NCBI GenBank assembly: GCA_025055015.1
Contig: JANWYQ010000131.1
Span: 1,856-65,855 of the forward strand
Length of the DNA: 64,000 nucleotides
Source of the DNA: Caldilineales bacterium
GTDB lineage: Bacteria; Chloroflexota; Anaerolineae; JAAEKA01
Direction of reading: 5' to 3'
The notes below the pieces were generated by a model. That model was not told where the DNA came from. It searched no databases and was given only the letters and a program-made list of their open reading frames with translations. Positions within the stretch are counted from its first letter, which is position 1. Every line of letters starts with the position of its first letter. The translations under genes and the position numbers were made by a program. Positions 14,653 to 39,870 of this stretch are shown in pieces.

Positions 14653-14658
14653 GCTCGT

Positions 14659-18308: not shown

Positions 18309-18317
18309 GCCGCTATT

Positions 18318-19601
18318 CTACCCCTGCCCCGCGAGGCGCGCAAAGTGGTCTAAGTACCGGCGGGCCAGGGGAGGCCAGCCGAACTCGGTCTCCACCAGCC
18401 GGCGGCCGGCTGCACCCATGGCCTGGCGCTGTTCGGGCGAGAGGGCAGCCAGGCGCAGGATGGCGCCGGCCAGGGCGGCGGGGTCCTGCTCCGGGATCAG
18501 GTAGCCGTTGACGCCGTTGCGGATCACCAGCTCGTTGCCGGCGGCCGTGCTGCCGATCACCGGCTTGGCGCAGGCCATGGCATCCAGCACGCATACGTTC
18601 AGGCCGTCGGCCGGCCGGGTGACCGAGGGCATGACCAGCGCGTCGGCCGCGTTGTAGTAGGCGGGGATCCGGTCGAAAGGCACGCGGCCCACCCAATGCA
18701 CGCAGCCCTCCAGCCCCAGGTCTCGCGCCAGCGCCTGCCACGCCTGCCACAGGTCGCCGTCTCCCACCAGGGCTAGGTGGATGGGGGGCAGGCGGTGGGG
18801 GCCGGCAGGGGAGGGCGAGCAGGCCAACAGGCCGCTCTGTCTCAGGACGCCCAGGCTGCGCAGCAGCACGTCGAAGCCCTTCTTGTAGACCATGCGGCCC
18901 ACGGCCAGCAGCAGGAGCGCGTCGGCCGGCACGCCCAGGCTGGCCCGCAGCTCGGCCGTCCCGGTGGGGTCGGGGCGCAGCGCGCCGGGGTCCACGCCGT
19001 AGATGATCAGGTCAAAGCGAGCAGGGTCTGCGCCCAGGTCGCGGACCGCTACCTCCTGCAGCGCGTGGCTGTTGGCCGTCACCAGGCCGGCCTGGTCCAG
19101 GGCGAAGCGGGCCATGCGGCGAAAGAGGGGGTTCTGGCCGGCTACCAGCGCGTCGGAGCCGGGGATGGAGACCACCAGGGGGATGCCCAGCAGCCGGCCG
19201 GCCGCGGCGCCGAAGAAGCCGTTGGGCAGCAGCCAGTGGGCGTGGATCACGTCGGGGCGATGGCGACGGCACCAGCGGAGCGCGGCGGCCACGCCAGCGG
19301 CGAAGAAGGCCGGGGCCAGCCAGTAGGTTTCCCGCCGCATGCGGACGTCGGCCTCCATGGTGCGCATGTAGCCCAGGCGGTGCCAGTCGCCGCGCGGGGC
19401 GTAGCGCCACAGGTAGAGCTGCGGCCGATGGGAGGCTTGGGGCCCGGCCTGCCCGTCAACGGTGTAGGCGGCGTCCCACGGGGCCAGCACCGAGACGCGG
19501 TGGCCCTGCCGCGCCAGCTCCTGGCTCAGCGCGGCCACAAAGCTGCCGCTGAAGTCGCCGGGGAAACGAGGGTAGTTGTGGGTGAGAACGGCGATGTGCA
19601 T
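18318..19601 (-). CDS. glycosyltransferase family 1 (GT4-type, GT-B fold)
   Basis: Glycos_transf_1 C-terminal region (E-x7-E context, GFDVLLRSL, NAADALVMPS). Start taken at MHIAVLTHNYP. Confidence 0.8.
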   Translation of the reverse strand: MHIAVLTHNYPRFPGDFSGSFVAALSQELARQGHRVSVLAPWDAAYTVDGQAGPQASHRPQLYLWRYAPRGDWHRLGYMRTMEADVRMRRETYWLAPAFFAAGVAAALRWCRRHRPDVIHAHWLLPNGFFGAAAGRLLGIPLVVSIPGSDALVAGQNPLFRRMARFALDQAGLVTANSHALQEVAVRDLGADPARFDLIIYGVDPGALRPDPTGTAELRASLGVPADALLLLAVGRMVYKKGFDVLLRSLGVLRQSGLLACSPSPAGPHRLPPIHLALVGDGDLWQAWQALARDLGLEGCVHWVGRVPFDRIPAYYNAADALVMPSVTRPADGLNVCVLDAMACAKPVIGSTAAGNELVIRNGVNGYLIPEQDPAALAGAILRLAALSPEQRQAMGAAGRRLVETEFGWPPLARRYLDHFARLAGQG

Positions 19602-19739
19602 GGAGAAAGGGCTAGCCGCGAAGTAGGCCACGGCTGTGGCCCAGGGCAAGAGGGGATTATAGCATCGGGCCGACGGCGGGGCAATTGGACGGCGCTATGA
19701 TTTGGGGCCGGACGGCGGATGCGGTATAAGGGGTCGGCT

Positions 19740-20537
19740 ATGGCCGAGCACCACGAACGCAGCTACACCGCCATCACCGAGATGCCGGGAAGCCTGGTCA
19801 CCGAGGAGCAGCGGGCCCGACTGCGCCACCGCTATGCCTTGGCGCGGAGCCACGCAGCCGGCCGCCGGGTGCTGGAGGTGGCCTGCGGCGCCGGCCTCGG
19901 CTTGGCCGCCGTGCGGGAGACGGCCGCCTGGCTGGTGGGCGGGGACTACACCACAGATGCCCTGGACGCGGCCCAGGCGCACTACCGGGGCGCGGTGCCC
20001 CTGGTGCGCCTGGACGCGCAGCGGCTGCCCTTCGCCGACGGCTCCTTCGACCTGGTCCTGTGCTTCGAGGCGATCTATTACTTCCCCCGGCCGATCGAGT
20101 TTCTGGCGGAGTGCCACCGGGTGTTGGCGGCCGACGGCCTGCTGCTGATCGGCAGCGAGAACAAGGCGTGGCCGCACTTTGTCCCCGGCCCCCTGAGCGT
20201 GGCCTACTACGCCACGGCGGAGCTGGCGGCCCTGCTGGCCCAGGCGGGGTTCGTCGCCGTGGAGGCGCTGGGCGCCTTTCCGGTGGAGCACCTGTCGCCG
20301 CGGCAGCGGGCGCGGGCCTGGCTGCGCCGCGGGGTCATGGCCACCGGCCTGTTCCGGCGCTGGCCGTGGGCGCGGGAGCGGCTGAAGCCCCTGGTCTACC
20401 GAGACCTACAGCCGCTGAGCTACGACCTGGCCCAGCAGCCATGGGGGCCGTTGCCTGTTCATCCCCTGGACCCCCAGGCCGACAACCGCGAGTTCAAGGT
20501 GATCTACGCGCTGGCGCGGCGCGGGCCGCGCTGCTAG
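19740..20537 (+). CDS. class I SAM-dependent methyltransferase
   Basis: VLEVACGAGLG motif I and DLVLCFEAIYY motif. Confidence 0.7.
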   Translation: MAEHHERSYTAITEMPGSLVTEEQRARLRHRYALARSHAAGRRVLEVACGAGLGLAAVRETAAWLVGGDYTTDALDAAQAHYRGAVPLVRLDAQRLPFADGSFDLVLCFEAIYYFPRPIEFLAECHRVLAADGLLLIGSENKAWPHFVPGPLSVAYYATAELAALLAQAGFVAVEALGAFPVEHLSPRQRARAWLRRGVMATGLFRRWPWARERLKPLVYRDLQPLSYDLAQQPWGPLPVHPLDPQADNREFKVIYALARRGPRC

Positions 20538-20767
20538 GGGCGCGCACCCCGCGAAGTTGACCTACCGCAGCGACACCCCGGCCCTGTGGGGTGAGAAACG
20601 TGGCCGCGAAGGCGCGAAGGTGAGCGCGAAGGCGCGAAGCGCTGGAATGGGTACGATCTCAAATCGTTCCGGGCAACGGAGCGGACGCCTTTGCGGTCCT
20701 GGAGATCCTTCGTCGGGTGTGGATCTCACACCGGATGGTCGCGCAGCGCCACGTAGCCGCGCCCGCG

Positions 20768-21742
20768 TCAGCGACCTTTCTCCCGCAGCCGGTGCTCCAG
20801 CTCCCGGATCTGCTCGCTCTGGCTGACGATGAGCTCGGCGATGAAGCCCACCAGGATCAGCAACAACCCGGCCAGGGCCAGGATGCCGGCGGCGATGAAG
20901 ATGGGGCGCTTTTGGGTCTGGGCGGCGAGCCACAGGCCCAGCAGGAAGGCGAAGGTAACGAAGGAGACGCCCAGGCTGATCAACCCGAGGCCGCCGAAGA
21001 AGCGCATGGGCGCCTGGCTGAAGGTGAGCAGGAAGCGCACCACCAACACGTCCAGGAAGGAGATGGGGATGCGGCCGATGCCGAACTTGGAGCGGCCGGC
21101 GCGGCGGCGATACCAGTTGGTGGGCACCTCGCCGATGCGGAAGCCCTGGTAGGCCGCAATGTGCAGGATGAAGCGGTGCCAGTCGGAGCGCAGGGGGGGC
21201 AGCTCCTCGATCACCTCCCGGCGAAAGGCCTTGATCCAGTTCATGTCGTGCACGGGCACGTCGAACAGCAGGCGGGAGACCCGGTTGTAGATGGCCGAGG
21301 CGAAGACCTTGCCCTCCTTGCGGTTCTGCCGCCAGCCGGCCACCACGTCGTAGCCCTCGTCCAGCTTGGCCAGCAGCTTGGGGATGTCCTCCTCCGGGTC
21401 GGACTCCAGGTCGGCGGGCAGGAAGACGATCACGTCGCCCTGCACGTGGCGGAAGCCGGTGCGCAGCGCAGCGGTGAGCCCCAGGTTGCGGCGGTGGCGC
21501 ACCAGGCGCAGGAAAGGATAGCGATCGGCCAGGCTGGCGGCCCGGTCGCCGGTGCCGTCGGTGGAGCCGTCGTCCACCAGCACCAGCTCGCAGGCGGTGC
21601 CCTGGGCCATCAGGGGCCGGAAGGCGCGGTCCACCTTCTCCAGCAGCAGGGGGATGTTGTCCGCCTCGTCCCGCGCGGGGATCAAGACGGAGAGGAGGCG
21701 CGTCGAGGGGGGCGCGGCGGCGGAGGTCGGCAAGTCGCTCAT
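20768..21742 (-). CDS. polyprenyl-phosphate glycosyltransferase, GT2 (ArnC/GtrB-like)
   Basis: PADLESDPEEDIPKLLAKLDEGYDVVAGWRQNR matches ArnC [32 protein letters not shown]. Two C-terminal TM helices. Confidence 0.8.
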   Translation of the reverse strand: MSDLPTSAAAPPSTRLLSVLIPARDEADNIPLLLEKVDRAFRPLMAQGTACELVLVDDGSTDGTGDRAASLADRYPFLRLVRHRRNLGLTAALRTGFRHVQGDVIVFLPADLESDPEEDIPKLLAKLDEGYDVVAGWRQNRKEGKVFASAIYNRVSRLLFDVPVHDMNWIKAFRREVIEELPPLRSDWHRFILHIAAYQGFRIGEVPTNWYRRRAGRSKFGIGRIPISFLDVLVVRFLLTFSQAPMRFFGGLGLISLGVSFVTFAFLLGLWLAAQTQKRPIFIAAGILALAGLLLILVGFIAELIVSQSEQIRELEHRLREKGR

Positions 21743-21749
21743 GGCCGGA

Positions 21750-23825
21750 TCACCAGGGCTCCCACGGCGCGCCTACGGCGTCCACGATGAAGGCGTAGAC
21801 CTCGGCCTCCTCGCGCAGGCGGTCGTAGCGGCCGGAGTGGCCGCTGTGGCCGGACTGCATGTTGGTCAGCAGCAGGAGGGGAAGGTCGTCGGTCTTGTGG
21901 GCGCGCAGCTTCGCCACCCACTTGGCCGGGTCCCAGTAGGGCACCTGCAGGTCGTTGAGGCCGGCCTTGGCCAGGATGGCGGGATAGGCCTGGGCGGTCA
22001 CGTTCTCGTAGGGGGAGTAGGAGAGCATGTAGTCGAAGGCCTGCGGGTCGTCGGGGTGGCCCCACTGCTCCCACTCCACCACGGTCAGGGGCAGCTCCGG
22101 CATCAGCATGGCGGTGATGACGTTGGTGAAGGGCACCTCGGCCACCACCGCGCGGAAGAGGTCGGGCCGCAGGTTGGTGACGGCGCCCATGAGCAGGCCG
22201 CCGGCGCTGCGCCCCCGGATGGCTAGCCGCCGGGGCGAGGTGTAGCCCTGGGCGATCAGGTGCTCGGCGCAGGCGATGAAGTCGGTGAAGGTGTTCTTCT
22301 TGTGCATCAGCCGGCCCTGCTCGTACCAGCGCCGCCCCATCTCGCTGCCGCCCCGCACGTGGGCGATGGCGAAGACGAACCCGCGGTCCAGCAGGCTGAG
22401 CCGGTCGCTGTTGAAGCCGGGGTCGGTGCTGGCCCCGTAGGCGCCGTAGGCGTAGAGCAGCAGCGGCCGGCTGCCGTCCAGGGTGATCCCCTCGGCGCTG
22501 TCGTCCTTGCGGAAGACCAGGGAGATGGGCACCTGGGCGCCGTCGGGGGCCGTGGCGAAGAGCCGCCGGCTTTCGTAGCGGGTGGGGTCGTAGCCGCTGG
22601 GGATCACCTGCTGCTTGCGCACCGTCCACTCGCCGGTGACCACGTTGTAGTCCACGGTGGAGCGGGGCGTGACCAGGGAGCTGTACTCGAAGCGCAGCTC
22701 GTCGGTGTTGTACTCGTGGTTGCCCTCGTACAGGCTGACGGTGTAGGTGGGCTCGGGGAAGGGCACGTAGCGCACGTTGGACACGCCGTCGGGGTCGGAG
22801 ATGCGCAGGCGGCGCAGGCCGTCGAAGCGCTCCACCAGCACCAGGTGGCTGCGGAAGGCCATGACCGAGCTGAGCAGGGTGTCCTCGCGGTGCGGCACCA
22901 CCAGCCGCCAGTTGGCCTTGGCGGGGTCTGCCACCGGCGCCTCCATCAGCTTGAAGTTCTCCGCGTCCTCGTTGGTGCGGATCAGGAAGCGGTCCTCGTG
23001 GTGCTCGACGTAGTACTCCATCCAGTGCTGGCGGGGATGGACAACGCGGAACTCGTCGGTGGGGCGGTCCGCCGGCAGGTAGTGCACCTCGGTGGTGGAG
23101 TGGCTCTGCAGCGTCATCAAGAGGAAGGCGCCGCTGCGGGTGCGCTCGATCTCCACGGTGTAGGCGTCGTCCGGCTCGTGGTACACCAGCACGTCGTGGG
23201 CCGGGTCGTCGCCGACGGTGTGGCGGAAGAGCCGGTAGGCGCGGTGGGCGTCGTCGAAGACGGTGTAGAACAGGGTGCGGCTGTCGTTGGCCCACGCCAC
23301 CGACCAGGCCACCCTGGGGATGGGGCCGTCCACCACCTCTCCGGTGCGCAGGTCCTTGACGTACAGGTCGTACACGTAGGCGCCGGTGGTGTCTACCGCG
23401 TAGGCCAGCAGGGTGTGGTCGGGGCTCGGCTCGAAGAGGTCGACGCGGCAGTAGGCGTGGCCCTCGGCCAGGGCGTTCTCGTCTAGCAGCAGCTCCTCCG
23501 GCGCCACCAGGCTGCCCTGCTTGCGGCAGAACTGGCGGTACTGCTGGCCCGGCTCCATGCGCCAGTAGTACAAGAACTCCCCGCGGCGCTCCGGCGCGCT
23601 GCTGTCCTCCTCCTGGATGCGGCCCCGCAGCTCCTGGTAGATCCGCTCCTGCAGAGGGGCTAGGTGTTGCATGGCCGCCCGCGCGTAGGCGTTCTCCGCC
23701 TCCAGGTACGCGATCACCTCTGGGTCGTCCTTGTTCTGCAGCCAGGCGTACTCGTCCACGAAGGTGCGGCCGTGCTTCTCGAAGGGATGGGGTATGCGCT
23801 TGGCGATGGGTGGGGCAAGAGACAT
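21750..23825 (-). CDS. ptrB: oligopeptidase B (protease II), S9 prolyl oligopeptidase family
   Basis: N-terminal beta-propeller plus C-terminal GRSAGGLL nucleophile motif. Full-length similarity to PtrB. Confidence 0.85.
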   Translation of the reverse strand: MSLAPPIAKRIPHPFEKHGRTFVDEYAWLQNKDDPEVIAYLEAENAYARAAMQHLAPLQERIYQELRGRIQEEDSSAPERRGEFLYYWRMEPGQQYRQFCRKQGSLVAPEELLLDENALAEGHAYCRVDLFEPSPDHTLLAYAVDTTGAYVYDLYVKDLRTGEVVDGPIPRVAWSVAWANDSRTLFYTVFDDAHRAYRLFRHTVGDDPAHDVLVYHEPDDAYTVEIERTRSGAFLLMTLQSHSTTEVHYLPADRPTDEFRVVHPRQHWMEYYVEHHEDRFLIRTNEDAENFKLMEAPVADPAKANWRLVVPHREDTLLSSVMAFRSHLVLVERFDGLRRLRISDPDGVSNVRYVPFPEPTYTVSLYEGNHEYNTDELRFEYSSLVTPRSTVDYNVVTGEWTVRKQQVIPSGYDPTRYESRRLFATAPDGAQVPISLVFRKDDSAEGITLDGSRPLLLYAYGAYGASTDPGFNSDRLSLLDRGFVFAIAHVRGGSEMGRRWYEQGRLMHKKNTFTDFIACAEHLIAQGYTSPRRLAIRGRSAGGLLMGAVTNLRPDLFRAVVAEVPFTNVITAMLMPELPLTVVEWEQWGHPDDPQAFDYMLSYSPYENVTAQAYPAILAKAGLNDLQVPYWDPAKWVAKLRAHKTDDLPLLLLTNMQSGHSGHSGRYDRLREEAEVYAFIVDAVGAPWEPW

Positions 23826-23864
23826 CGTGCGCTCCTGAACAAGCGATGAGAGACCACCCTGAGC

Positions 23865-23892
23865 TTATAGCACGGCCTCCCCACTTTGTCAA
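23865..23892 (-). promoter_or_regulatory. sigma70-type promoter for ptrB and the GT2 gene
   Basis: Minus strand reads TTGACA-17nt-TATAAG, about 30 nt before AGGAG and ATG 23825. Confidence 0.5.
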
Positions 23893-24111
23893 CGCCTGGG
23901 AACCTTTCGACGAGAGGGGCAGCTGGTTGCGCTGGTCTCCCGGGGCCGGGCAGCGCCGATCAACGACCGGGGCGGGCCGGCCGTCCGGTCGAAGCGATCA
24001 GGGCACGGCTCCTCGCCGCCGAAGGTGGCGCGAAGGCGCCCCGCCGCGGCCTCTCGAAACGCCCTGTGGGCGAGAGGTCTTGCCTCCCCATCGCAGTGCT
24101 CTGCCGCGGCT

Positions 24112-25224
24112 TCAGTGCAACGCCTCCCGCAGGGCAGAAACGACGCGGTCCTGTTGTTCCTCGGTCATCTCCGGGAAGAGGGGCAAGGAGAGCACCTGGC
24201 CGGCCGCGGCCTCGGCCACGGGGAACTGGCCCGGCTGGTGCCCCAGGAAGCGATAGGCGGGCTGCAGGTGGAGGGGCAGGGGATAGTGTACGCCGGCGCC
24301 GATCCCGCGCTGCTGCAGGTGGGCCAACACCTGGTCGCGGCGGGGCGTGCGCACGACGTAGAGGTGGAACACCGGCGTGACGTGGGCGGGCGCCGAGGGC
24401 AGGGCCAGGTCGGTGTCGGCCAGGAGCTGGCTGTAGCGCGCCGCCAGGCGGCGGCGGGCTGCGTTGGCGGCGTCCAGGTGGGGCAGCTTGGCGGAGAGGA
24501 TGGCCGCCTGCAGCGCGTCCAGGCGATGCCCGAAGCCCACCTCCTCGTGGACGTACTTGCTGGTGCGGCCGTGGTCCCGCAGGCGACGGACGCGGTCGGC
24601 CAGGGCCGCGTCGTTGGTCACCACCGCGCCGCCGTCGCCGTAGCAGCCCAGGTTCTTGCCGGGGAAGAAGCTGAAGCAAGCGGCGTCGGCCAGGCTGCCC
24701 ACGCGGCGGCCGCGGTGCTCTGCGCCGTGGGCCTGAGCCGCGTCCTCGATCAGCCGGAGGCCGTGCCGGCGGGCCACTGCAGCCAGGCCGTCCATGTCCG
24801 CCGGCTGGCCGTAGAGGTGGACGGGCAGGATGGCCCGGGTGCGGGGGGTGACGGCCGCCTCCACCGCGGCCGGGTCGAGGTTGTAGGTGGCGGGGTCAAT
24901 GTCGGCGAAGACCGGCGTAGCCCCCACGGCCGAGATGGCCTCGGCGGTGGCGATGAAGGTGAAGGGAGTGGTAATGACCTCGTCGCCCGGCCCGATGCCC
25001 AAGGCGCGCAGGGTCAGCTCCAGCGCCGCCGTGCCGGAGCTCACGCCGACCGCGTGCTCGGCCTGGCAGTAGGCGGCAAAGGCCGCCTCGAAGGCCCGCA
25101 CCTCCGGACCCAGGATGAAGCTGGCGTTGGCAATGACGCGCGCGATGGCCGCATCAATCTCCGGCTTGAGCGCCGCGTACTGCGCCTTCAGGTCAACCAG
25201 GGGAATGGGCGACAGATCAGGCAT
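24112..25224 (-). CDS. DegT/DnrJ/EryC1/StrS family sugar aminotransferase (second paralog)
   Basis: Same family signatures as 12473..13582. Overlaps the upstream ATPase gene by 8 nt. Confidence 0.85.
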   Translation of the reverse strand: MPDLSPIPLVDLKAQYAALKPEIDAAIARVIANASFILGPEVRAFEAAFAAYCQAEHAVGVSSGTAALELTLRALGIGPGDEVITTPFTFIATAEAISAVGATPVFADIDPATYNLDPAAVEAAVTPRTRAILPVHLYGQPADMDGLAAVARRHGLRLIEDAAQAHGAEHRGRRVGSLADAACFSFFPGKNLGCYGDGGAVVTNDAALADRVRRLRDHGRTSKYVHEEVGFGHRLDALQAAILSAKLPHLDAANAARRRLAARYSQLLADTDLALPSAPAHVTPVFHLYVVRTPRRDQVLAHLQQRGIGAGVHYPLPLHLQPAYRFLGHQPGQFPVAEAAAGQVLSLPLFPEMTEEQQDRVVSALREALH

Positions 25225-26620
25225 CGGTCTGCGCTCCTGACGTGATGAAGTCCAGCCGCTCCTCCAGGCGCTCGATCTCCGCCTTGGTGCGGTTGATGTC
25301 GTTGATCAGGTCCACGGGCACGCGCACGCCGTAGGCCGCGCGCTGCAGCTCCAGCTCGCGCAGGTTGGTGCGCTGGATGCGCAGCATCTCGGTCACGTAG
25401 CGCCTCTCCTCCTCCCGGCCCGCGTTGATCATCTGCTGGGTGGCGTCGTCCGGCACGTCGCTGGCGTGGGCCTGTTCCAACAGCTGCTCGTAGTTCTGCT
25501 CCAGCCAGCGGCGCAGGAACTCGTTGGCAGGGGCCAGGCCCTGGGGCGTGATGCGCAGCTTGCCCAGCCGCTCCTGGCTGTAGACGAAGTCCTGCACGGC
25601 CGCGGGCGGCAGGCCGGTGTCTTGGCTGATGGCGGCGACGTCCCGGTGGCCGGCGACGATGGACAGCAGCACCTGTCGTTCGCCGGGGCTGAGCCAGCGG
25701 TAGTCGTTGTCGAAGTAGTCAGCCAAGGTGGAGTCCAGGTAGAGGTCCTCCGGCTGCAAGGGCTTCAGCTCGCCGCTTTCCAAGAACAGCCGGCTGCACA
25801 GCACCTGCAGCAGGTAGGGGTGGTTGCCGGTGGCCTCCATGATCTGGCGCACCTGCTCGTCGCTGACCTGCACGGGGACAGGATCCTGGGTCTGGCGGAT
25901 CAGGGCGGCGGCCGACTCGTCGTCCAGGCCGGTGAGGTTGCGCAGGCTGAAGCCGAACAGGAAGGGCGACGTGGGCCAGTCTCGGGTGAGCAGGTTCAGT
26001 CGGCTGACGACCTTGGTGCCCGTCAGCACCACGCGCAAGCCGCCAGCGCTGAGCAGCACGCGGCGCAGGCGCGCGAGAGACCTGGGGTCCGTTTCGGCCA
26101 GGTTCAGCAGCGCCTCGGCCTCGTCCACCAGCAGCAACAGGCGCTTGTCCGCCTCCCGCAGCATGGCGCGCAACAGACGCAGCACCAGGGGCGCGTCCGC
26201 CTGGTCGCGGTAGAGCTTGTGCAGCTCCACGCCGATGCTGGTGAAGCGCCGCTTCTCGTCCTCGACGCTGTAGAGCAGCTCGTTGGTCATGTCCTCCATC
26301 GTCTCGCTGCCCTGCAGGTCCCAGAAAAGGGGCACGTAGGTGGCGCCGTCGGCGGTGAGGTACTCCAGCTGGCGCAGGAGGGATGTCTTGCCCATGCGCC
26401 GGTTGCCTATCACCAGGACGGCGTCGTTGTCGCTTTCGAGGATGTGGGCCAGCAGCGCGTGGCGACCGTAGTGCTCACGGCCGCTGACCCATCCGCCGGT
26501 CTTGTAGGGGTTTCGCACGGTGGTTGACTTCCTTGCTAGGGATGGAGCCCGTCGGGCGGCTCTTGGGCGCACGGCGCGAGCGCCGCTAGCTGCCCTGGCC
26601 GGCGGACGGCTCCGATCCAT
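25217..26620 (-). CDS. soluble AAA_35-like P-loop NTPase with C-terminal HTH and coiled-coil
   Basis: NPYKTGGWVSGREHYGR...VLVIGNRRMGKTSLL Walker A, LLLVDEAE Walker B, C-terminal SPGERQVLLSIVAGHRDVAAISQDTGL helix-turn-helix. Paralogous to the cytoplasmic half of 26586..29893. The AAA_35 family name is from memory. Confidence 0.7.
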   Translation of the reverse strand: MDRSRPPARAASGARAVRPRAARRAPSLARKSTTVRNPYKTGGWVSGREHYGRHALLAHILESDNDAVLVIGNRRMGKTSLLRQLEYLTADGATYVPLFWDLQGSETMEDMTNELLYSVEDEKRRFTSIGVELHKLYRDQADAPLVLRLLRAMLREADKRLLLLVDEAEALLNLAETDPRSLARLRRVLLSAGGLRVVLTGTKVVSRLNLLTRDWPTSPFLFGFSLRNLTGLDDESAAALIRQTQDPVPVQVSDEQVRQIMEATGNHPYLLQVLCSRLFLESGELKPLQPEDLYLDSTLADYFDNDYRWLSPGERQVLLSIVAGHRDVAAISQDTGLPPAAVQDFVYSQERLGKLRITPQGLAPANEFLRRWLEQNYEQLLEQAHASDVPDDATQQMINAGREEERRYVTEMLRIQRTNLRELELQRAAYGVRVPVDLINDINRTKAEIERLEERLDFITSGAQTDA

Positions 26621-29600
26621 CGGGCTGTGATGTCCGCGCGTTGGTCACGATCTCCAGGGCCTTCTGCGCGTCTCTCAGGGTCACGCGCGTCCGGCCCGCC
26701 GCTAACATCTGGTTCACGGCCTCCAGGCAGTGCTGCTGAATGTAGTAGGGGCGCCCTTCCGACGCCCGCAGGATCAGATCCACGGCAGCCGGCTCATAGG
26801 TATACACGCCCCGCACCGGCTCCAGGATCAGCTGACGGGCCGCCTGTTCGTCCAGCGGCCCCAGCCGGATCTCGGTGAACAGGTTGTACCAGGGGCTCTC
26901 CAGCCGGTCCCACTGCTTGCTGATGTTAAGACCGGCCACCACCATGCCCAGGTTCCGGGCGAAGGTCCGCATGAAGACCCGGCGAAGCTGCTGGTGGAGG
27001 GCCTGGTCGTAGGTGTTCATCACGTCTACCTCGTCCAGCAGCAGGATGATGCGCACCTGGCGATCGCTGGCGCCCTGCAGCGCTTCCACGATCCGGCTGA
27101 TGTCGTGGCTGAAGTCTCGGTCGGAGTAGGTGTCGGCGGCCTCGCCGTGGAAGCGCAGCTCCAACCCCTGGGCCGCGGGGGGCAGCGCGGCCAGGATCTC
27201 CTCCATCAACAGGTGGAAGAACTCCTGCTCCGGCGTCCCCTCCAGGTCCACGTACACGGGGATGAACCAGTACTCCGGGTCCTTCGTCTCCCGCAGGTAG
27301 CGCAGGAGCTGGTAGAGCAGGCTGGTCTTGCCGATGCGCCGCTCGCCCTGGATCATGACGTTGTTCTCGTGCAGGATGTTGGCGATGCGGGCCAGGGTCT
27401 CTTGCCGTCCAAAGAACATGTCGCTGGTCTGGATAGGATCGCCGGAGACGTAGGGGTTGAAGCGTCGCCGCACGGCCTCTCGGCGCCGCCGTCGGCTGCG
27501 AGCGGCGGTGGCAACCGCGGCGCCGCCGCCGGCCACGGTCGCCGCCAGCAGGACGCCCAGGGCCCCTGCCGTGCCCTGCGCCACCCGGCCGAAGAGGGGC
27601 AACACCACGCTGGGCCTCACCTGCACGGCCATGCGGGCAGGCGCTGACCCGCGCAGGCTGGTGCTCCAGGCCTCGACCTCGAAGGTGAACTCGCCAGGGG
27701 GCAACCCGGGGTAGATCGCCTGGCGGTCCGCTGTGATGCGCCAGCCGTCTCCGGTGGCCGCGCCGTTCAACCGTGTTCGATAGAGCATGTCGTTGGCCGG
27801 GGTCAGCAGGTCGTAGCCGGCGTAGGTGATCACCATGGGCTCGCCCGACAGGACCTCGACCTGGTGAGCCGACGGCTTCTGGCCGTTCACGGCGGTGATC
27901 TCCACCCGCGGGGAGCCGGCGAAGGGCACATGGCGGTTGAGGCCTAGCCGCGTGCCCACCCACAGCTCGCCCCGGTTGCCGGCGGCCAGGGCGGTAACCT
28001 CGTTGTCCAGCAGGCCGTCGCTGCGGGTGTAGGCGCGGCGCAGGCCGGTGGCGGGATCGAGGCGGGTCAGGCCGGCGGTGGTGCCCCACCAAAGGCCCTG
28101 ACCCGGCGCGGCCAGGAGGGCGTTGATGGGCGCCGCAGCTGCGGTGGCCGTTTCCCACCGCTCGGTCGTCGGATCGAACCGATAGATCAGGCCGCGCTGC
28201 GTGCCTGCCCAGACCCCGGCGCCGGGCCGTCCGGCGGGCATCTCCGCCAGGCTGAGCACCTGGGCGTCCTCCAGTCCGGCGGCGCGGTCGAAGGTCCGCC
28301 ACCGGCTCTCGCCGGGATCCAGCCGAGCCAGGCCGCCGCGGGTTCCTACCCACAGCCGGCCCAGGCTGTCCTCCAACAGCGCGCCCTGGTTGACCTCGTC
28401 GCTGGGCAGGCCGTCGGCGACGGTGAAGGAGGTCCAGGTGTTGTCCTGGGGCGTGAAGCGCAGGACACCCTGGTCGAAGGTGCCGAACCAAAGGCTGCCG
28501 TCCCGTGATCGCAGGGCGGCGCGAGGCACCGGCGCGCGGGGAGTTGCCGTATCCACAGCCTCCCACCGCAGCGTGGGCGGCTGGACCTCGGCCCCCAGGG
28601 GAAGCCGTGCCCGGAACAGCCCCTGGGACGCTGTGCCCAGCCATAGGTAGCCGTCCCGGTCCTCCACCAGCGTGCGCACGTAGTCCTCGGGGAGCCCGTG
28701 GCTTTCCTGCGAGAAGCGCGCCAGCCGCTGGCCGTCGAACCACAACAAGCCCGCCCCCTCGGTGCCCACCCACAGCGCGCCGGAGGAGTCGACCAGGAGG
28801 GTCACCACCTCCAGCCCGGCCGGCAGGTCGGGAGAGGCGAAGGTGCGCCACGAGCGCGCGTCGAAGCGGCTGACGCCCACCACGGTGCCCAGCCACACCA
28901 GGCCGTTGTGGTCCATGGCGACGGCGCCCACGGCGTTGGCGTTGAGGCCGTCCAGCGTGGTGAGGGTGCGCCAATAGCCCTCGCCCCAGAAGGGGGAAAG
29001 GCCGTTGCGGTTGAACACGCTCACGCCCGCGCCGTCGGTGCCGATCCAGAGGTTGCCCTCGTCGTCCTGGCCGAGGGCCAGCACGTCGTTGGAGGCGATC
29101 CCCTCGGCGGCGTTGCCGGTGATCGGCCGCGGGAAGTGGGCCCAGTCCTCGCCGTTGAAGCTCCAGAGGCCGTCGCCCAGGGTGCCCACCCAGAGGGTCT
29201 CGGGCCACTGCGGGGTCGGCGGCGTCACCAGCAGCGCCTGCACCCGCCCCGATCCTCGATAGCCCGGCGCCGGCTCCGGCCGACCGCCGAAGGGGTCCAG
29301 GCGATACAGGGTATTGCCGCCCAGCCAGACCGCGCCCCGCCCGTCCACGGCGATGGCGGTGATGGTGTCGGCCAGGGAGGCAGCGTGGTCGCCGGCCACC
29401 GGGCGCCACTCGTCGGCCGTCCAGTAGCCCACCACGCCGTCGCCGCCCACCCAGACCACGTTGCCTGTCGCGTGCAGCGCCCACACGGGCCCGGCCTCCG
29501 GCTTCGGCAGCCGCTCGAACTGGCGTCTCTGCCCCGGCGCCGGCGAGGCGGCGCGCGCCAGGCCGTTGGCGGTTCCGACCCACAGCGCGCCGTCGGCGGT

Positions 29601-29893
29601 CTGGGCCAGGGCGTAGACCGGGCCAGGGGGCAGCCCGTCCTGGGCGGTGTAGCTGCTCCAGGCGCCGTCGAAGTGGCTCAGGCCGCTGCGAGTGCCAAAC
29701 CAGACGCTGCCGTCGGGCTCGACCACGATGCTGCGCACGTTGCCGCCCGGCAGCTCCTCGGTGAAGGAGGTCCAGCCCACCCCGCCGGCGCCCTGCGCCC
29801 GGCCCGTCCAGGCACGGGGAAGACAGACCATGCCCAGGCTGGCCAGGGCGGCGGCGAGGAGCGCTAACTGCCAGGGCCGCAGGCGAGGCTGGG
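26586..29893 (-). CDS. transmembrane sensor: signal peptide + about 11-14 Reg_prop propeller blades + Y_Y_Y domain + TM helix + cytoplasmic AAA_35-like NTPase-HTH
   Basis: Repeated xLWVGTxxGLxRFD blades. EFTFEVEAWS-type Y_Y_Y region. Hydrophobic segment followed by RSRRRRR. FNPYVSGDPIQTSDMFFGRQE...IQGERRIGKTSLL Walker A, ILLLDEVD Walker B. The ORF runs to 29969, but the likely start is the GTG near 29893, which gives a canonical signal peptide. Confidence 0.75.
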
Positions 29894-30032
29894 CCACCTT
29901 AAATTTTGTGCGAGAGTTAGACGTTTGTAACCTGCAATGGTTGTCAGCAGGCGTAAAATATGCTATCATCGTTTTCAGCTAGTTTGACAAACGCCGCCGG
30001 AGCCTGCTCCTCTCAGCGTTTCTGGAGGCCAT

Positions 30033-30806
30033 ATGAGACCGCATCGTGTGCTCACCATCGCTTTCCTCATCGCCGCCCTGCTTGGGGCAACACGAGTCGG
30101 TGCTGAGGCCTCTTTCCGGCCGCAAGCAGCCATCGTTCACACCGTCAAGCGGGGAGACACCCTTTCCGGCATTGCCGCTCGCTACGGCTCATCGGTCCAG
30201 GCCATTGTCCAGGCCAACGGCTTGTCCGGCACCACCATATACCCTGGGCAGTCCTTGCTGGTTCCCCAGGTCAGCCAAGGTAGCGGCGCCGCTGCAGCTG
30301 CGCCGAAGCCGTCCGGCGCGGCTCTCAAGTCCATCGTGCACGTCGTGCGGGCGGGCGACACGCTGAGCAGCGTGGCTGCGCGCTATGGCACCACGGTGGC
30401 GGCCATCAAGCAGGCCAACGGCCTGGCCAGCAACACCATCTACGTGGGCCAGTCGCTGCTTATTCCGGTGGGCGCGGCGTCGCCGAGCGGCCATCGCCAG
30501 TACATCCCTACCTCAGGCGGCACAGTTGGCGGCGCGTGCGGCAGCGCCTACACGGTCCAGCCAGGGGACACCCTGGGTGGCATCGCGGCGCGCTGTGGAC
30601 TGACGGTCAGCGAGCTGCGCAGCTACAACGGCATGGACGCCAGCACCGTGCTCCGTCCCGGCCAAGTGCTGGTGGTGGCTGCGCCGACCGCGCCGGAGGA
30701 GGGCAGCGTCGGCTCGGCGCCGGAGGCTACGCCGGCCGCACCGGAGCCTGCCACCACGCGGGTGCCGGTGCGTCCTCCGGCCACCTACAGCGGCAGCACA
30801 CCTTAA
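30033..30806 (+). CDS. secreted protein with three LysM domains
   Basis: Signal peptide, then 3 x (HTVKRGDTLSGIAARYG...ANGL...IYPGQSLLVP)-type LysM repeats. Confidence 0.8.
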   Translation: MRPHRVLTIAFLIAALLGATRVGAEASFRPQAAIVHTVKRGDTLSGIAARYGSSVQAIVQANGLSGTTIYPGQSLLVPQVSQGSGAAAAAPKPSGAALKSIVHVVRAGDTLSSVAARYGTTVAAIKQANGLASNTIYVGQSLLIPVGAASPSGHRQYIPTSGGTVGGACGSAYTVQPGDTLGGIAARCGLTVSELRSYNGMDASTVLRPGQVLVVAAPTAPEEGSVGSAPEATPAAPEPATTRVPVRPPATYSGSTP

Positions 30807-31091
30807 TAGGGGCGCTGTTCCTTTGCGCCAGCTGCCGTCGTCCTGCACCGGGCGAACCGTTGTGCGCGCCGCGGCTCGGCCCAGGCGCGCCGCGAACGGG
30901 TTTGTAAGGTCGCAAGGCAAGCAAACCGTACATAATATAGCACAACTTGACAGAAAAATCAAGTCTATGTCAAGTCGTTTCCGACATTTTTTACATAAAT
31001 TCGAGCCCGATGCGCCATCGCGCCGTCACTTCCACGGGTTGCTGTCGTCACCATAAGAAGACAGACCGTGCATCTCAACCGGAGAGGTTCT

Positions 31092-31730
31092 ATGCGCAGA
31101 GATCCCTGGAAAGCCCTTCTGACGATGGCAGCAGCACTGCTGGCTCTCGGCCTGGCGGCTTGGCCGACCCAGGCGGGCGAGCCGCGCCCGGAAGCCGTGG
31201 TGGTGCGCACCGGGGAGACCCTGAGGGAGATCGCAGCCCGCTACCGCCTGCTTCCCCACGTCCTGATCGAGGCCAACGGCCTGACCGGGCGAGCGCTGTA
31301 CCCAGGCATGCGCTTGATGATCCCAGAGGCGGAGACGGACGTGGACGGCTTTGCCGCTGATTGTCGCCAGACAGCGCTCTACACCGTACGCCGCGGGGAC
31401 ACCTTGCCCGCCCTGGCCAAGGCCTGGGGGACCACCGTGGCCGAGCTCAAGGCGGCCAACGGCCTGGTGGGCGAAGCTATCTGGGTGGGGCAGGGGCTGC
31501 GACGGCCGTGTTCGCCTTCGGCGGACGGCGCAGACGGCTCGAGCGCCAGGACCTCAAGGCCTCGCTGCGGCGCCGAATACGTGGTGCGCCGGGGAGACAC
31601 CCTGGCAGGCATCGCCGAGGGCTGCGGCGTGACCCTTTCTGCCCTGAAGCAGCTCAACCATCTGAAGGGGGACACAGTTCTGGTGGGCCAGAACCTGCGC
31701 ATTCCGCTGCCGACGGCTCGGGACCACTGA
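31092..31730 (+). CDS. secreted protein with three LysM domains (paralog)
   Basis: GGAGAGG ribosome-binding site, signal peptide, 3 LysM repeats (VVRTGETLREIAARY, TVRRGDTLPALAKAWG, VVRRGDTLAGIAEGCG). Confidence 0.75.
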   Translation: MRRDPWKALLTMAAALLALGLAAWPTQAGEPRPEAVVVRTGETLREIAARYRLLPHVLIEANGLTGRALYPGMRLMIPEAETDVDGFAADCRQTALYTVRRGDTLPALAKAWGTTVAELKAANGLVGEAIWVGQGLRRPCSPSADGADGSSARTSRPRCGAEYVVRRGDTLAGIAEGCGVTLSALKQLNHLKGDTVLVGQNLRIPLPTARDH

Positions 31731-31795: not shown

Positions 31796-34612
31796 TCATT
31801 CCTCCGCCCGCAGCCAAGCTACGGCGGCAGCCACCTGCGGCTCGCGCCACCCCATGCCCAGGCCGACCCGCACCCCCTGGACCGCGTCCACCGCCTCCAC
31901 CACCGGCCGCGCTGCGCCGGGCGCCGGCGCCGGCAGCACCAGCGCGGCCTGGCTCCAACGGAAGCGCCCCCGCAGGTCAGTCAGCCCCAGCTGCGCCAGC
32001 GCTTCCGCCGCCTCGGCGCTCAGCTGGTCGGCCGCCGTATCCTTCACCGCAACGGCCAGGATTTCCTGCTGGCCTAGCCCCTGCAGATAGGCTATCAACG
32101 CCGTGGACGCGTCGGGGTCGGCGTGGGTGTCGAAGTGGGCGGCCGAGATCAGCCGGCCGGACGCCCCGTCCACGATGGCCAGGTTGTAGCCCCGGCTGTT
32201 GGGGGACACGTTGCGGCCGTTGAGCCAAATGTGGCCGTAGTTGCCCGCCTCGAGGCCCGCGCTCTCCACCAGCAAGTTCACCGGGGCCAGCCCAAAGGCG
32301 GCCGCTGCGTCGGCGACGGGGTAGGTGCGGCCGAAGCGGAGGAGCACCTCGTTGGCGTCCTCGGTCAGCGCGCCGGCCGGTACCTCGAAGAGGAGCGCGG
32401 CCCACTGCGTCGGCAGGGGCTGGGGGGGTGTGCGGTGGCCGTTGACCTCCAGGGCCACGGTCTGCCCCGGGCCGGCGGCCATGGCGCGCACCGCGATGCG
32501 CCTCGCGCCGGGCGACGCCGGCGGCAGCAGCAGCCGGGTCTCCCGGCGATGCGCCCACAGGGCGGCTTCCTCGGCGCCCGGCGGCCGGGCGGTGCCCTGG
32601 CCTGCGCCGCTCCAGCCCTCCCCGCGGCTCAGGGGGTCCGCCGCCGGCCGCACGACGACCGGCCCCGGCGACGGCGCGTAGACCGGCCGGTAGAGGCGTC
32701 GGGGACCTTCCTCGGCCACCAGGGTCAGCGGCAGGTAGCGCTCCACGAAGCGGGTGTACTCCGGCGGCACCCGGTCGGTCTGCACCACCACGTAGGCCAC
32801 GTCCAGCGCTGCCAGCACGGCAGCGGCGTCGGCGGCCGCCGCTTGGAGCATGGCGTTGCCGCCCAGGCTCGGGTCGCCCTGGCGGATGCCCTCCAGGGCC
32901 GGCGCCAGCGCGCGGCGCACGTGAGGGTGCCCGTCGTCGGCGTTGGCCAGCACCGTCAGCGGGCCGATCAACGGCGCCTCCAGGAAGTAGCGGAACTTGT
33001 GCTCGGGGTTGCGAGAGGTGTTGCCCCCTAGGATGGGCCGGCCGTGCCGCGTCTGCCACCACTGCTGGAACATGATGATCACGTCCTGCTTGCCGAAGAC
33101 GCTGAAGCCGTTGCGCCAGCCCGTGGGCAGGTCCAGCACGGCGAAGCTGCCCTCGGCTCGCGCGATGCGGTCGTAGATGGCGGGGATGCGCATGTCGCTC
33201 AGGGGCAGAGGGACCGAGAGGTTCTCGATCAGCAGCCCCCCGGCCAGCGCCGTCGCTACCAGGCTCGGCGCCCACCGCTGGGCCGGCCGGCGTCGCTGCG
33301 CCCAGGCCAGCGCGGTCTCGGCCGCTGCGGCCAGCAGCACCGAGGCAGCCAACAGCAGCATCACGCTCCAGCGGCTAGGGTAGCGGTTGCCCTTGAAGAG
33401 GGGGAGCTCCTGCAGCAGACGGAAAGGGCCGGGCACGCCGGTGTCGTGACCCATAACCCGCAGGGTCGGCCCCAGGGTCAGCAGGAAGAAGAGGGCAGCC
33501 GCCGCAGCCCAAAAGGCCAGGGAAGGCCAGGGCTGTTCCTCTCGGCGGCGTCGCCAGGCCAGCCAGCCGCCGGCCAGGGTCAGCGCCAGTCCCAGGTAGC
33601 CGAGGGTGAGGTGTTGACCCTTGTTCACCTGCCACTGGCTGCCGTCAGGCCGGAGCTGCGAGTCGTCCGCCAGCGTGCGCACCACGTCGCCGAAGAGGGG
33701 ATGGAGCTGCGTAGGCAGCAGGAAGCCGGCCAGGTCCGCGGAGAAGAGGTCGGCGAAGCCGCCCCCCTCCACCAGGAAGTCCCCCTCGGCGCGCAGGTCG
33801 GGGACCATGTTGGCCAGCACCGGCGCCAGGCCGACCACGAAGAGCAGCGCCAGCGCAGCCAGGTTGCCCAGCCAGCGGCCGTCCTCCAAGCCGTTTTGGC
33901 GGCTCTGGGCTCTGGCCTCCGCCCACTGCACCCCGCGCCAGGCTGCGGCCAGGGCGATGAACACCGCCAGAAAGCTGGCGTAGGTCAACTCGGCGTAGGC
34001 CTGCATCAGCAGGAAGAGAGCGGCCAGGAGCGCCTCCCGCCGCCGCGCGGCGGGGCGCAGGCAGCGCAACGCGTAGAGAGCAGCGAAGGGCACCCACTGC
34101 GAGCTGGCGATGTTGAACTGCCCCAGGGAGGCGTAGAACAGCTTGCTAGAGGAGAAGGCGTAGAGCAGGCCGGCCAGGAAGGCTGCCGCGTAGCGGGCCG
34201 CGCAGGGCCGGTCGCCGCGGCCCTGTGCCAGGGCCCACAGGGCCAGCAGGTAGGCGCCGTAGCCGCCCAGCACGAAGGAGGAAAGCAGCACCAGGTTGGA
34301 CGCCGGCACCAGCCCGACGCTCACCTGGAGCGGCACCGCCAGCAGGCCGTTCCACACCGTCAGGGTGTAGAAGGCCAGGTTGATCCCCAGGGGGTAGAAC
34401 ATCCAGCGGCTGTCGAAGGGGTTGAGCTGGCGGTCCACCAGGCTGAACTTGACCCACCACAGGTTCCAGGCCAGGGCCGGGTCGTCAATGCCGTCGCCGG
34501 GGACGTGGGTGGTGAAGCGCAGGGCCAGGGGCAGGGTGAGCAGCAGGCTGAGCAGCGTGTAGCCCGACAGAGCCCACAGGTGGTGAGAACGCAGAAGGCG
34601 TCGCAGGGACAT
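31796..34612 (-). CDS. large YfhO/GT-C-like polytopic membrane protein with C-terminal PANDER/ILEI-like (GG-lectin) domain
   Basis: About 13 TM helices in the N-terminal 480 aa. C-terminal NYGHIWLNGRNVSPNSRGYNLAIVDGASGRLISAAHFDTH resembles the ILEI/PANDER fold as I recall it. Confidence 0.55.
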   Translation of the reverse strand: MSLRRLLRSHHLWALSGYTLLSLLLTLPLALRFTTHVPGDGIDDPALAWNLWWVKFSLVDRQLNPFDSRWMFYPLGINLAFYTLTVWNGLLAVPLQVSVGLVPASNLVLLSSFVLGGYGAYLLALWALAQGRGDRPCAARYAAAFLAGLLYAFSSSKLFYASLGQFNIASSQWVPFAALYALRCLRPAARRREALLAALFLLMQAYAELTYASFLAVFIALAAAWRGVQWAEARAQSRQNGLEDGRWLGNLAALALLFVVGLAPVLANMVPDLRAEGDFLVEGGGFADLFSADLAGFLLPTQLHPLFGDVVRTLADDSQLRPDGSQWQVNKGQHLTLGYLGLALTLAGGWLAWRRRREEQPWPSLAFWAAAAALFFLLTLGPTLRVMGHDTGVPGPFRLLQELPLFKGNRYPSRWSVMLLLAASVLLAAAAETALAWAQRRRPAQRWAPSLVATALAGGLLIENLSVPLPLSDMRIPAIYDRIARAEGSFAVLDLPTGWRNGFSVFGKQDVIIMFQQWWQTRHGRPILGGNTSRNPEHKFRYFLEAPLIGPLTVLANADDGHPHVRRALAPALEGIRQGDPSLGGNAMLQAAAADAAAVLAALDVAYVVVQTDRVPPEYTRFVERYLPLTLVAEEGPRRLYRPVYAPSPGPVVVRPAADPLSRGEGWSGAGQGTARPPGAEEAALWAHRRETRLLLPPASPGARRIAVRAMAAGPGQTVALEVNGHRTPPQPLPTQWAALLFEVPAGALTEDANEVLLRFGRTYPVADAAAAFGLAPVNLLVESAGLEAGNYGHIWLNGRNVSPNSRGYNLAIVDGASGRLISAAHFDTHADPDASTALIAYLQGLGQQEILAVAVKDTAADQLSAEAAEALAQLGLTDLRGRFRWSQAALVLPAPAPGAARPVVEAVDAVQGVRVGLGMGWREPQVAAAVAWLRAEE

Positions 34613-38724: not shown

Positions 38725-39853
38725 ACCCACGCCCCTCCGAGAACAACCTCCCCTGCGGCCGGCTTGTCCGGCGGCCGCCGGCCTCCGGCCGTTGGTGCTG
38801 CTGGCGTTGGCGCTGGCGCTGCTCGTGCTGGCCGGCTGTCGCGACCGCGGCACGCAGCTTCCCATCCCCATGGACGACCTGCTGCCCACCGGCTGGCGGG
38901 TGCACAGGCCGGAGGGCAAGCGCCAGGTCCTTCAGCCGCTGAGCATTGACGGCGACAGCGAGCAGGAGTGGCTGCTGTTCTACCACTTCGACAACGTGGA
39001 GGGGGGCGCCAACGGACCCATCGGCGGCATCATCTACGACGCGCAACAGGACGCAGCCCGGTACGATCCGCAGACCGTCATCCCCTTCCCTTACCAGCCC
39101 TCTGCCTTCTTGGTGCCCTATCGCCTGCTGCCCGACTGGCGCTTCGGCAAGGGCCAGGGCTACCTGGGCAACGACGCGGTGCAGTTCGAGGTCGTCAGCG
39201 CCGTCACCCCGCGCCGAGGCGAGGAGAGCACCGGCCAGGAGCTGGTGGTGTTCGGAAAACAGCGCGGGGCGGTGACGCGGGTTTCGATTTTCCGCTGGGT
39301 GAGCCCTCAGGAGGGCTATGCGTCGGTGCACTTCGTCGGCAGCCATCGCGTCGAGATCGGCCCGCGCGAGGCGCTGACGTTGGTGCGGGAGGTGACCACC
39401 TTCGACATGTTGTCCGAGCGTAGCAACCTGTGCAAGCGCACCACCTACCAGCGCCAGGGCGACGCGCTTACTTTCAACGTGGTCAGCCCGCCTGCCATCG
39501 TCTTCTGCCAAGGCACGCCCGCCGAGCCGACCTATCCGGAAGCGGTGGTGCTGGCCTGGCTGCTCAACAGCCCTGGCGCGGCGCGCAACGCCCTGGTGGC
39601 GCCGGGCAGGGAGGGCCAGGTCAACGCCGCCGGCCCGGCGTCCGTCCTGCGGGTGCTCTCCCTCACCTACGACTCCACGGCCATGACCCTGGACGTGGGC
39701 CAGGATGCCGTCTCGCGCATGGCGGTGCAGACCACTGTGGAGGTGCCCGGCCCAGGCCGGCGAGTGTATCGGTGGACCCTGCAGGAGCGCAAGCCCCAGG
39801 CGGTGCGCGACACCTCCCGCTGGCTGATCCTCGACGTGGCGCAGGTGCCGTAA
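38717..39853 (+). CDS. lipoprotein, function unknown
   Basis: Signal peptide with LAGC lipobox. Overlaps the lon stop by 8 nt. Confidence 0.5.
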
Positions 39854-39870
39854 GCTGCTCACCAGAAGCC

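Follow-up and report, generated by a model that had tools for sequence, protein, structure and literature searches.

Locus and gene models

We analyzed a window of 64,000 nucleotides from a Caldilineales bacterium (GenBank assembly GCA_025055015.1, contig JANWYQ010000131.1, positions 1,856 to 65,855). All coordinates below are positions in this window. Two adjacent genes on its minus strand are the subject of this report: gene A (26586..29969), predicted to encode a membrane receptor with a nucleoside triphosphatase (NTPase), and gene B (25217..26518), which encodes a soluble partner NTPase. A first-pass annotation made from the sequence had proposed the two adjacent open reading frames (ORFs), and both are confirmed at these positions.

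The A ORF translates to 1127 amino acids (aa), with GTG 29897 as the likely real start, which gives 1103 aa. Public annotation (Caldilineales GCA_033578055.1, contig JAVQXR010000005.1) uses this GTG and the 1103-aa protein (P0380). An exact database look-up of the 1127-aa ORF returned no record because the public annotation begins 24 codons later. The 72 nt directly 5' of the GTG (29898-29969), which form the first 24 codons of the long ORF, are AT-rich and promoter-like. This favors the shorter form, which we regard as the more likely one.

For B, the start GTG 26518 gives 433 aa, and public annotation agrees (P0121, 100% identical). An alternative ATG at 26620 would give a 467-aa ORF (25217-26620) that overlaps A. 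The 433-aa form is probably the real one, because B orthologs begin with the consensus MRNPY and a Shine-Dalgarno-like AAGGAAG precedes GTG 26518.

Domain architecture

The AlphaFold2 (AF2) model of A was built from 26 orthologs and has a predicted local distance difference test (pLDDT) score of 84.5. Its elements follow in this order: an N-terminal anchor helix, about 14 four-stranded blades, an immunoglobulin (Ig)-like sandwich, a transmembrane (TM) helix, an Arg-rich linker, an NTPase core and three lid helices, after which the protein ends. The anchor is a hydrophobic segment (WQLALLAAALASLGMVCLP, 29817..29873, helix 8-24 of the model) that reads as a signal anchor or signal peptide. The predicted extracytoplasmic part is a double beta-propeller of about 14 Reg_prop blades (27930..29774). 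It is recognized by Pfam (Reg_prop, E 1e-45, in 8 stretches), by strands at model residues 42-656 and by Foldseek. A Y_Y_Y-type Ig-like domain follows (27579..27908). Its Pfam match is weak and below threshold (E 0.0054); a beta-sandwich at model residues 664-773 and the alignment to BT4663 agree with the assignment, and Y_Y_Y is listed among the precomputed Pfam domains of several A orthologs. In Foldseek the ectodomain matches the periplasmic sensor of BT4663 (E 5e-44, about 795 columns) as well as those of BT4673 and BT3049, with PorZ more distant.

The single TM helix (27501..27578, model helix 774-798) is the hydrophobic stretch GALGVLLAATVAGGGAAVATAA. It is followed by a juxtamembrane linker (RSRRRRREAVRRR, 27441..27500) with about 15 Arg-rich residues between the helix and the start of the NTPase-plus-lid module. 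The linker leads into an invariant NPY; the lead-in residues N, P, Y, G and P are the same in all 26 orthologs. The topology implied by the anchor helix, the TM helix and the positive-inside linker makes A, in its predicted structure, a type-I-like membrane receptor.

The cytoplasmic part of A is an NTPase core with an AAA+ lid (26628..27467), defined by Pfam, invariant motifs and the AF2 model; no winged helix follows. It carries an RFNPYVSG...FFGR lead-in, Walker A GERRIGKTS (27321-27347), Walker B LLLDEVD (27024-27044) and an ESPWYNLF motif (26877-26900). From residue 848 onward it matches AAA_16 (36.4 bits), ATPase_2 (33.3 bits) and nSTAND1 (30.9 bits), each just over its cut-off; the Pfam gathering cut-offs are 33.2 bits for ATPase_2 (PF01637), 27.1 for nSTAND1 (PF20703) and 27 for AAA_35 (PF14516). 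The nSTAND1 match covers only profile positions 12-223 of 379. Pfam finds no HisKA or HATPase_c in A at E <= 1, and no REC, HTH_18 or significant helix-turn-helix (HTH) model. A histidine kinase or a known effector in the cytoplasmic half was considered and rejected, as Pfam and NCBIfam give P-loop families only. An HTH at the C-terminus of A was also considered and is ruled out by the AF2 model, which terminates after the three AAA+ lid helices. The one HTH hit, HTH_62, is sub-threshold (E 0.015) and lies within the NTPase region. In sequence, the C-terminal helices match the C-terminal region of proteasomal Rpt ATPases weakly and without significance.

B is modeled with a pLDDT of 93.4 and a predicted template modeling score (pTM) of 0.89. 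Residues 1-270 of the model form the NTPase core and lid (25709..26518), with Walker A GNRRMGKTS (26381-26407), Walker B LLLVDEAE (26114-26137) and TSPFLFGF (25949-25972). A winged-helix domain follows at about residues 275-332 (25523..25696; model helices 278-288, 294-301 and 305-317, strands 321-324 and 327-330). The protein ends in an antiparallel helical hairpin, a coiled coil at residues 357-432 (25223..25450; model helices 357-396 and 402-432). B aligns over 317 residues to the 350-residue chain of 2qen. In Pfam, AAA_22 is over its cut-off and ATPase_2 and AAA_35 are under theirs (AAA_35 at 25.1 bits against 27). nSTAND1 has no match in B itself, and B-type relatives score 28.2-32.4 bits. 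No solved relative is found at significance by sequence; B has none, and the best for the A profile is ORC4 (E 0.003). By their sequences, both NTPases appear ATPase_2/AAA_16/nSTAND1-like and are not AAA_35.

Most of what the first-pass annotation had said of the two proteins stands. The propeller/Y_Y_Y sensor, single TM helix and P-loop NTPase of A, with no kinase or receiver, are borne out jointly by Pfam, the AF2 model and Foldseek, and the NPY lead-in, FFGR, Walker A and Walker B motifs are present in the proteins as described. Its AAA_35-like label has to be dropped (E 0.28, 10.4 bits and not significant for A, and the sub-threshold score given above for B). So does the C-terminal HTH of A, where the model has lid helices instead, and with it the idea of a self-contained one-component DNA-binding switch, as the receptor has no HTH. 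For B, the C-terminal coiled coil holds up as a hairpin; the HTH turns out to be a winged helix. Judged by PABY2304, SSO1545 and matched NB-ARC proteins, such a domain typically follows the NTPase in this family, and it need not bind DNA.

Paralogy and conservation of the pair

The NTPases of A and B share 28% identity over 264 aa in BLASTP (E 2e-12), and profile-profile comparison relates them with a probability of 99.65% (E 5e-25). By these comparisons the two are paralogs, as the first-pass annotation had read them. Orthologs of both have in common an invariant GxRRxGKT[ST] Walker A, the D-E Walker B residues, the N-terminal NPY..G lead-in and a W..SP[WF] motif. Mean pairwise identity among orthologs is 57% and 58% in the two NTPase cores and about 33% in the ectodomain and the hairpin. 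These identities point to equal constraint on the A and B cores.

We surveyed the pairing from both sides. Genes in the fetched loci were called as stop-to-stop ORFs and labeled by BLAST, which makes the counts approximate. Starting from B, with one genome per species, relatives were detected in 303 genomes, and the loci of the best 80 of these were examined. All of the best 80 are Chloroflexota or unclassified metagenome-assembled genomes (MAGs); Caldilineaceae are the main group, with Litorilinea, Caldilinea, Ca. Amarolinea and 'Anaerolineae' also represented. In 78/80 of these species-level genome loci, B is preceded on the same strand by an ORF similar to the A-type NTPase. Most of these ORFs also bear the propeller, and the remainder are interrupted by a contig end or frameshift. 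The gap from A stop to B start, usually 4-120 nt, stays within -8 to +122 nt for the majority of loci; some have gaps of up to 1.7 kb. One of the two exceptions (L025) is a contig end; the other (L018) is discussed below. Starting from the A NTPase, a metagenome scan gave 80 loci, 72 of which had enough downstream sequence. A B-type NTPase gene is directly downstream in 61/72 of these and elsewhere in the locus in 2/72. Wherever the pair occurs in the fetched loci, its order and orientation are the same. Chance adjacency, which the first-pass annotation had named alongside a degenerate kinase as an outcome that would undo its reading, is ruled out by these two independent surveys, and a degenerate kinase was likewise not found.

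The full fusion of propeller to NTPase is common: among the best 150 representatives of clusters at 50% identity, dozens have it. The module is found in MAGs assigned to Litorilinea aerophila and Caldilinea sp. Vicinamibacteria is the sole taxon name obtained for proteins of the second, TPR-type group described below (related protein P0092), and judged from this one source name the A/B class would probably also occur in Acidobacteriota.

Variable inputs and outputs

Relatives of the A NTPase at 42-57% identity carry a range of N-terminal inputs. One group (L115-L170, about 800 aa) has a TPR-like helical region with a signal sequence, an apparent Ig-like segment and a TM helix; the TPR assignment is from Pfam and the other parts were read from the sequence. 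Others have an N-terminal receiver domain (P0010, P0013, P0015, P0078) on an NTPase about 55% identical to that of A, a TM anchor alone (L107) or no input at all (L089, 315 aa). In one receiver variant (L087), the B-type gene that follows is 39% identical over 209 aa. The first-pass annotation had suggested that the NTPase replaces phosphorelay. The receiver-bearing relatives suggest that the NTPase pair can also act downstream of a phosphorelay and not always in its place.

B-type NTPases vary at the other end. Their additions include SIR2_2 (L089:8945-10843), a Ser/Thr protein kinase domain (Pkinase, L135:8761-10782) and an N-terminal OmpR-type Trans_reg_C together with an apparent C-terminal hydrophobic TM segment (L150:2685-4562, minus strand). 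In L145 nothing lies beyond the winged helix (about 350 aa). Since B-type NTPases are fused to SIR2_2, kinase or Trans_reg_C, the output position appears highly modular, and the place held by the hairpin in the window B would be the variable output slot of the family. Adjacency and order of A and B are retained across groups only about 40-45% identical that have a wholly different wider context. Together these loci, the most informative of our observations, point to the A-NTPase/B-NTPase couple as the constant part, with variable parts occupying the input and output positions.

Further features were seen in these variant loci. B is short (about 350 aa) in the TPR-type group, and a conserved third gene of about 86 aa lies immediately 3' of B in at least 18 loci of this group (for example L171:11161-11424 and L172:11297-11557). 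Its product, compared with the hairpin of the window B, is unrelated. A candidate role of the hairpin as a homotypic adaptor common to a neighboring gene was rejected, because neither the window nor any of the fetched loci yielded another copy. The receiver-type A in L087 (8001-9431) is preceded by a cyclic nucleotide monophosphate (cNMP)-binding protein and an ILEI-domain membrane protein, with two REC+Robl_LC7 proteins and a Ser/Thr kinase nearby. In precomputed Pfam lists, Reg_prop/Y_Y_Y sensors also occur with histidine kinase, GGDEF, SpoIIE, TPR and Sigma54_activat modules.

Genomic context

Directly downstream of B is a DegT-type aminotransferase gene (24112..25224, minus). A, B and DegT very probably form one transcript, with DegT placed in the operon because its ATG overlaps the B stop (ATGCCTGA). 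It belongs to a long envelope-glycan gene cluster spanning 12488-25224, which also contains a second DegT paralog (12488-13582), an epimerase (13579-14652), an 870-aa DUF2079 membrane protein, LPG_synthase_TM, a GT4, a methyltransferase and a GT2. An oligopeptidase B-like peptidase S9 gene (21750-23825) lies between DegT and GT2.

Upstream of A, on the plus strand, Pfam on the annotated locus identifies two paralogous secreted LysM proteins (30033-30806 and 31068-31730), the nearer of which is divergent from A. Next is a 938-aa multi-TM protein on the minus strand (31796-34612), in which Pfam detects an ILEI domain (PF15711) at the C-terminus and, weakly, DUF6541; it is a possible target or accessory of the pair. 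The interval between A and the divergent LysM gene (29898-29990) is markedly AT-rich against a genome of about 70% GC and contains a TTGTCA-17-TATCAT promoter-like match on the plus strand. It is probably a shared divergent promoter region of the two genes. A promoter and terminator scan of 20.5-30.2 kb gave none exceeding the shuffled expectation.

Several of these neighbors recur. LysM and ILEI genes are found in L003, L005, L087 and many metagenome loci, and many loci outside Caldilineaceae have DegT as the gene right after B. The pair in L089/L090 and L005 lies between DegT and a hexapeptide transferase that is itself preceded by a GFO_IDH_MocA oxidoreductase. These three enzyme types are similar to those of a WbpB/WbpD/WbpE-type route to diacetamido sugars. 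Further downstream in the same loci are GT2 genes, and GT4 and LPG_synthase_TM also occur in L089/L090. Base composition is uniform across the window, giving no sign of an island.

Elsewhere in the window there is a SAM riboswitch (RF00162) at 5208-5386 on the plus strand (80.6 bits, E 2e-17), and a 615-aa ORF at 39430-41277 (plus) that by eye looks HTH-like at its C-terminus and like an ATP-binding regulator in the middle.

Interpretation

We give an even chance to the reading that A and B are a conserved pair of NTPases that relay a signal across the membrane. The signal would pass from the input domain of A to the A NTPase, from there to the B NTPase, and on to the output domain of B. A ligand on the ectodomain would probably reposition the membrane-tethered A NTPases; BT4663 dimers reportedly close like scissor blades upon ligand binding. 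The repositioned NTPases would favor a nucleotide-bound state that recruits B or nucleates it into a hetero-oligomer, as in STAND (signal transduction ATPases with numerous domains)/AAA+ switches, sensor/helper pairs of NOD-like receptors (NLRs) and Orc1/Cdc6. It is from such analogies that we infer A-B hetero-oligomerization. Assembly would then cluster the B output domains.

More speculatively, and for the window locus only, the ligand would be an extracytoplasmic glycan, possibly derived from the envelope. The output might there be directed at the co-transcribed and neighboring envelope-glycan genes (DegT, GT2, GT4, LPG_synthase_TM, DUF2079, ILEI, LysM), with either the B winged helix contacting DNA or the hairpin contacting a protein partner. 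We weakly favor the hairpin as the output, because the recognition helix is poorly conserved and some B variants carry a dedicated DNA-binding domain.

Several observations weigh against this reading. Neither Pfam nor the AF2 model gives the window B a recognizable enzymatic or dedicated DNA-binding output. The recognition-helix positions of its winged helix are poorly conserved, which argues against a conserved operator, and no operator-like inverted repeat was found upstream of A. An A-type gene stands without a B nearby in 9/72 informative metagenome loci, and L018 has B without A. Thus the pairing is not obligatory in every subfamily. The glycan context is also uneven. The linked DegT and LysM genes anticipated by the first-pass annotation do recur in many Chloroflexota loci; in Caldilineaceae proper, however, DegT is not found near the pair in most loci, where other genes follow B (for example methyltransferases or a class A penicillin-binding protein), and the two TPR-type loci whose neighborhoods were examined have no glycan-gene context. 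The glycan link may partly reflect inherited synteny within Chloroflexota. Because this context is not universal, the core pair looks like a generic relay, and the envelope-glycan link like a feature of the Chloroflexota lineage. In L018 itself (9177-12441), B lies directly between DegT and an ORF that, judged from its sequence, is hexapeptide-repeat transferase-like; this resembles the L089 arrangement minus the A gene.

Parts of the same evidence can be read differently. The nSTAND1-type lead-in and Pfam match recall STAND/NLR-type anti-phage or conflict systems, in which A would sense an invader-related or envelope-damage cue and B would deliver an abortive-infection effector. SIR2_2 and Ser/Thr kinase domains, found on B variants, also occur as effectors of defense systems, and there are weak matches over the P-loop region to the PADLOC candidate models PDC-S27 and PDC-S01. 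We think a defense role unlikely. The PADLOC and NCBIfam (Avs, DS8) models match only around the N-terminal NTPase part or P-loop, and no defense model matches full-length (at most 23 bits in PADLOC and at most 15 bits for NCBIfam defense models, far under the cut-offs). The window B has no enzymatic effector, the neighbors are envelope and housekeeping genes with no defense genes among them, and base composition is uniform. B relatives in 303 species-level genomes, constant order and orientation in every fetched locus and long-range synteny in Caldilineaceae also speak against it. Alternatively, the pair might be a non-transcriptional regulator or component of the envelope-glycan assembly machinery, by functional analogy with polysaccharide co-polymerase/BY-kinase pairs such as Wzc or CapA/CapB. 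The extracytoplasmic domain, TM helix and P-loop protein would then, with the soluble paralog, control polymerization or export by cycles of oligomerization. Translational coupling of A, B and DegT, the embedding of the pair among sugar-nucleotide pathway enzymes in L089, L090 and L005, and the recurrence of GT2, GT4, LPG_synthase_TM, ILEI and LysM neighbors fit this proposal. It is nonetheless improbable in our view: BY-kinases have a MinD/ParA-type fold, whereas these NTPases are AAA+/STAND-like; the TPR-type relatives examined keep the pair without glycan genes; and the Trans_reg_C, SIR2 and Pkinase outputs on B point to generic signaling.

A and B might also be independent. B would then regulate transcription of the downstream operon by itself, as an ATP-dependent winged-helix factor, A would be a separate receptor ATPase, and their adjacency would be a matter of shared regulation only. 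Lone action is known from STAND/AAA+ regulators such as MalT and AfsR, and the winged helix of B, the one locus with B only and the nine with A only fit such independence. We consider it quite unlikely, as adjacency and order survive input and output swaps and changes of context, which shared regulation does not easily explain, and as A alone lacks an output domain. That A by itself is a one-component transmembrane switch, binding DNA through its own C-terminal HTH, is highly implausible: it has in its favor only the helical C-terminus read from the sequence, where the AF2 model ends at lid helices and the sub-threshold HTH_62 match falls inside the NTPase region.

Beyond the two-protein relay, we propose, tentatively and with more doubt than confidence, that the pair represents a distinct class of prokaryotic transmembrane signaling, in which an extracytoplasmic sensor with one TM helix and an NLR/AAA+-like NTPase nucleates assembly of an output-bearing NTPase, as a sensor/helper NLR pair that spans the membrane, with swappable inputs and outputs and wide distribution in Chloroflexota. 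The bacterial transmembrane routes known to us are histidine kinases, Ser/Thr kinases, anti-sigma factors, cyclases and membrane-bound DNA-binding proteins, and STAND/NLR-type NTPases are known to us as cytosolic receptors. If the proposal is true, a sensor of the hybrid two-component system (HTCS) type driving an NTPase pair adds a new transduction principle, ligand-controlled NTPase assembly at the membrane, and NLR-like switches become linked to extracellular sensing. The inputs and outputs exchanged naturally within the family could help to dissect the mechanism. In filamentous Chloroflexota, among them Ca. Amarolinea, which is known from wastewater systems, the synthesis of envelope or sheath glycans may be under the control of the pair. 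Litorilinea and Caldilinea are genera with cultured members; the presence of the module in MAGs assigned to them makes the question directly testable.

Comparison with known systems

Searches of the literature on nSTAND1, Reg_prop+Y_Y_Y+ATPase, COG3292 and transmembrane STAND/NLR proteins found no description of the A architecture or of the pair, in agreement with the first-pass annotation, which knew of no characterized system of this kind. The relevant parts of Kaur et al. (2020) and of a 2026 STAND survey likewise yielded no description of the A/B architecture; 'System 4' is a different, EACC1-caspase system (Kaur et al., 2020). Databases name these proteins only 'AAA family ATPase', 'ATP-binding protein' or 'two-component regulator propeller domain-containing protein'.

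On the sensor side, A has the same double Reg_prop propeller, Y_Y_Y domain and TM helix as the Bacteroides HTCS sensors BT4663, BT4673 and BT3049. Unlike them, it has no HisKA, HATPase_c, REC or AraC output, carries an AAA+/STAND-like NTPase instead and comes from a Chloroflexota host. Precomputed Pfam lists also contain Reg_prop/Y_Y_Y proteins with Sigma54_activat (for example P0406, P0407, P0431 and P0440), in which an AAA+ ATPase similarly replaces the kinase on the same type of sensor. The AAA+ clade there, that of bacterial enhancer-binding proteins, is not the one of A or B, and some list HTH_8. We know of no characterization of these proteins.

On the NTPase side, the closest to the NOD (nucleotide-binding oligomerization domain)-like fold of B are the archaeal ATPase_2 proteins PABY2304 (2qen) and SSO1545 (2fna). 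B differs in adding the helical hairpin, and by sequence it is under the Pfam cut-off and A just over it. In the PDB they are called no more than a Walker-type ATPase and a conserved hypothetical protein, and to our knowledge neither has a partner receptor or an assigned function. Both A and B have the P-loop NTPase of the STAND NOD module, with Walker A and an hhhhD[DE] Walker B. In its model B has the nucleotide-binding domain, lid and winged helix in the arrangement of ATPase_2 and NB-ARC-type proteins, and A lacks the winged helix. Canonical STAND/NLR proteins are cytosolic, with a C-terminal repeat sensor and an N-terminal effector in the same polypeptide, whereas the sensor of A is N-terminal and extracytoplasmic and B has no repeat sensor.

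Sensor/helper NLR pairs (NAIP-NLRC4 and paired plant NLRs) are similar in logic and not in membership. The STAND/AAA+ transcription regulators MalT, AfsR/SARP-NB-ARC and GutR are, in contrast, single cytosolic proteins that sense cytoplasmic ligands. By Pfam, neither A nor B has a LuxR HTH or an OmpR-type winged HTH, which was found only in the L150 relative. The proposed A/B relay, a form of NTPase-switch signaling, would work like NLR pairs and like MalT/AfsR switches, and is a member of neither group.

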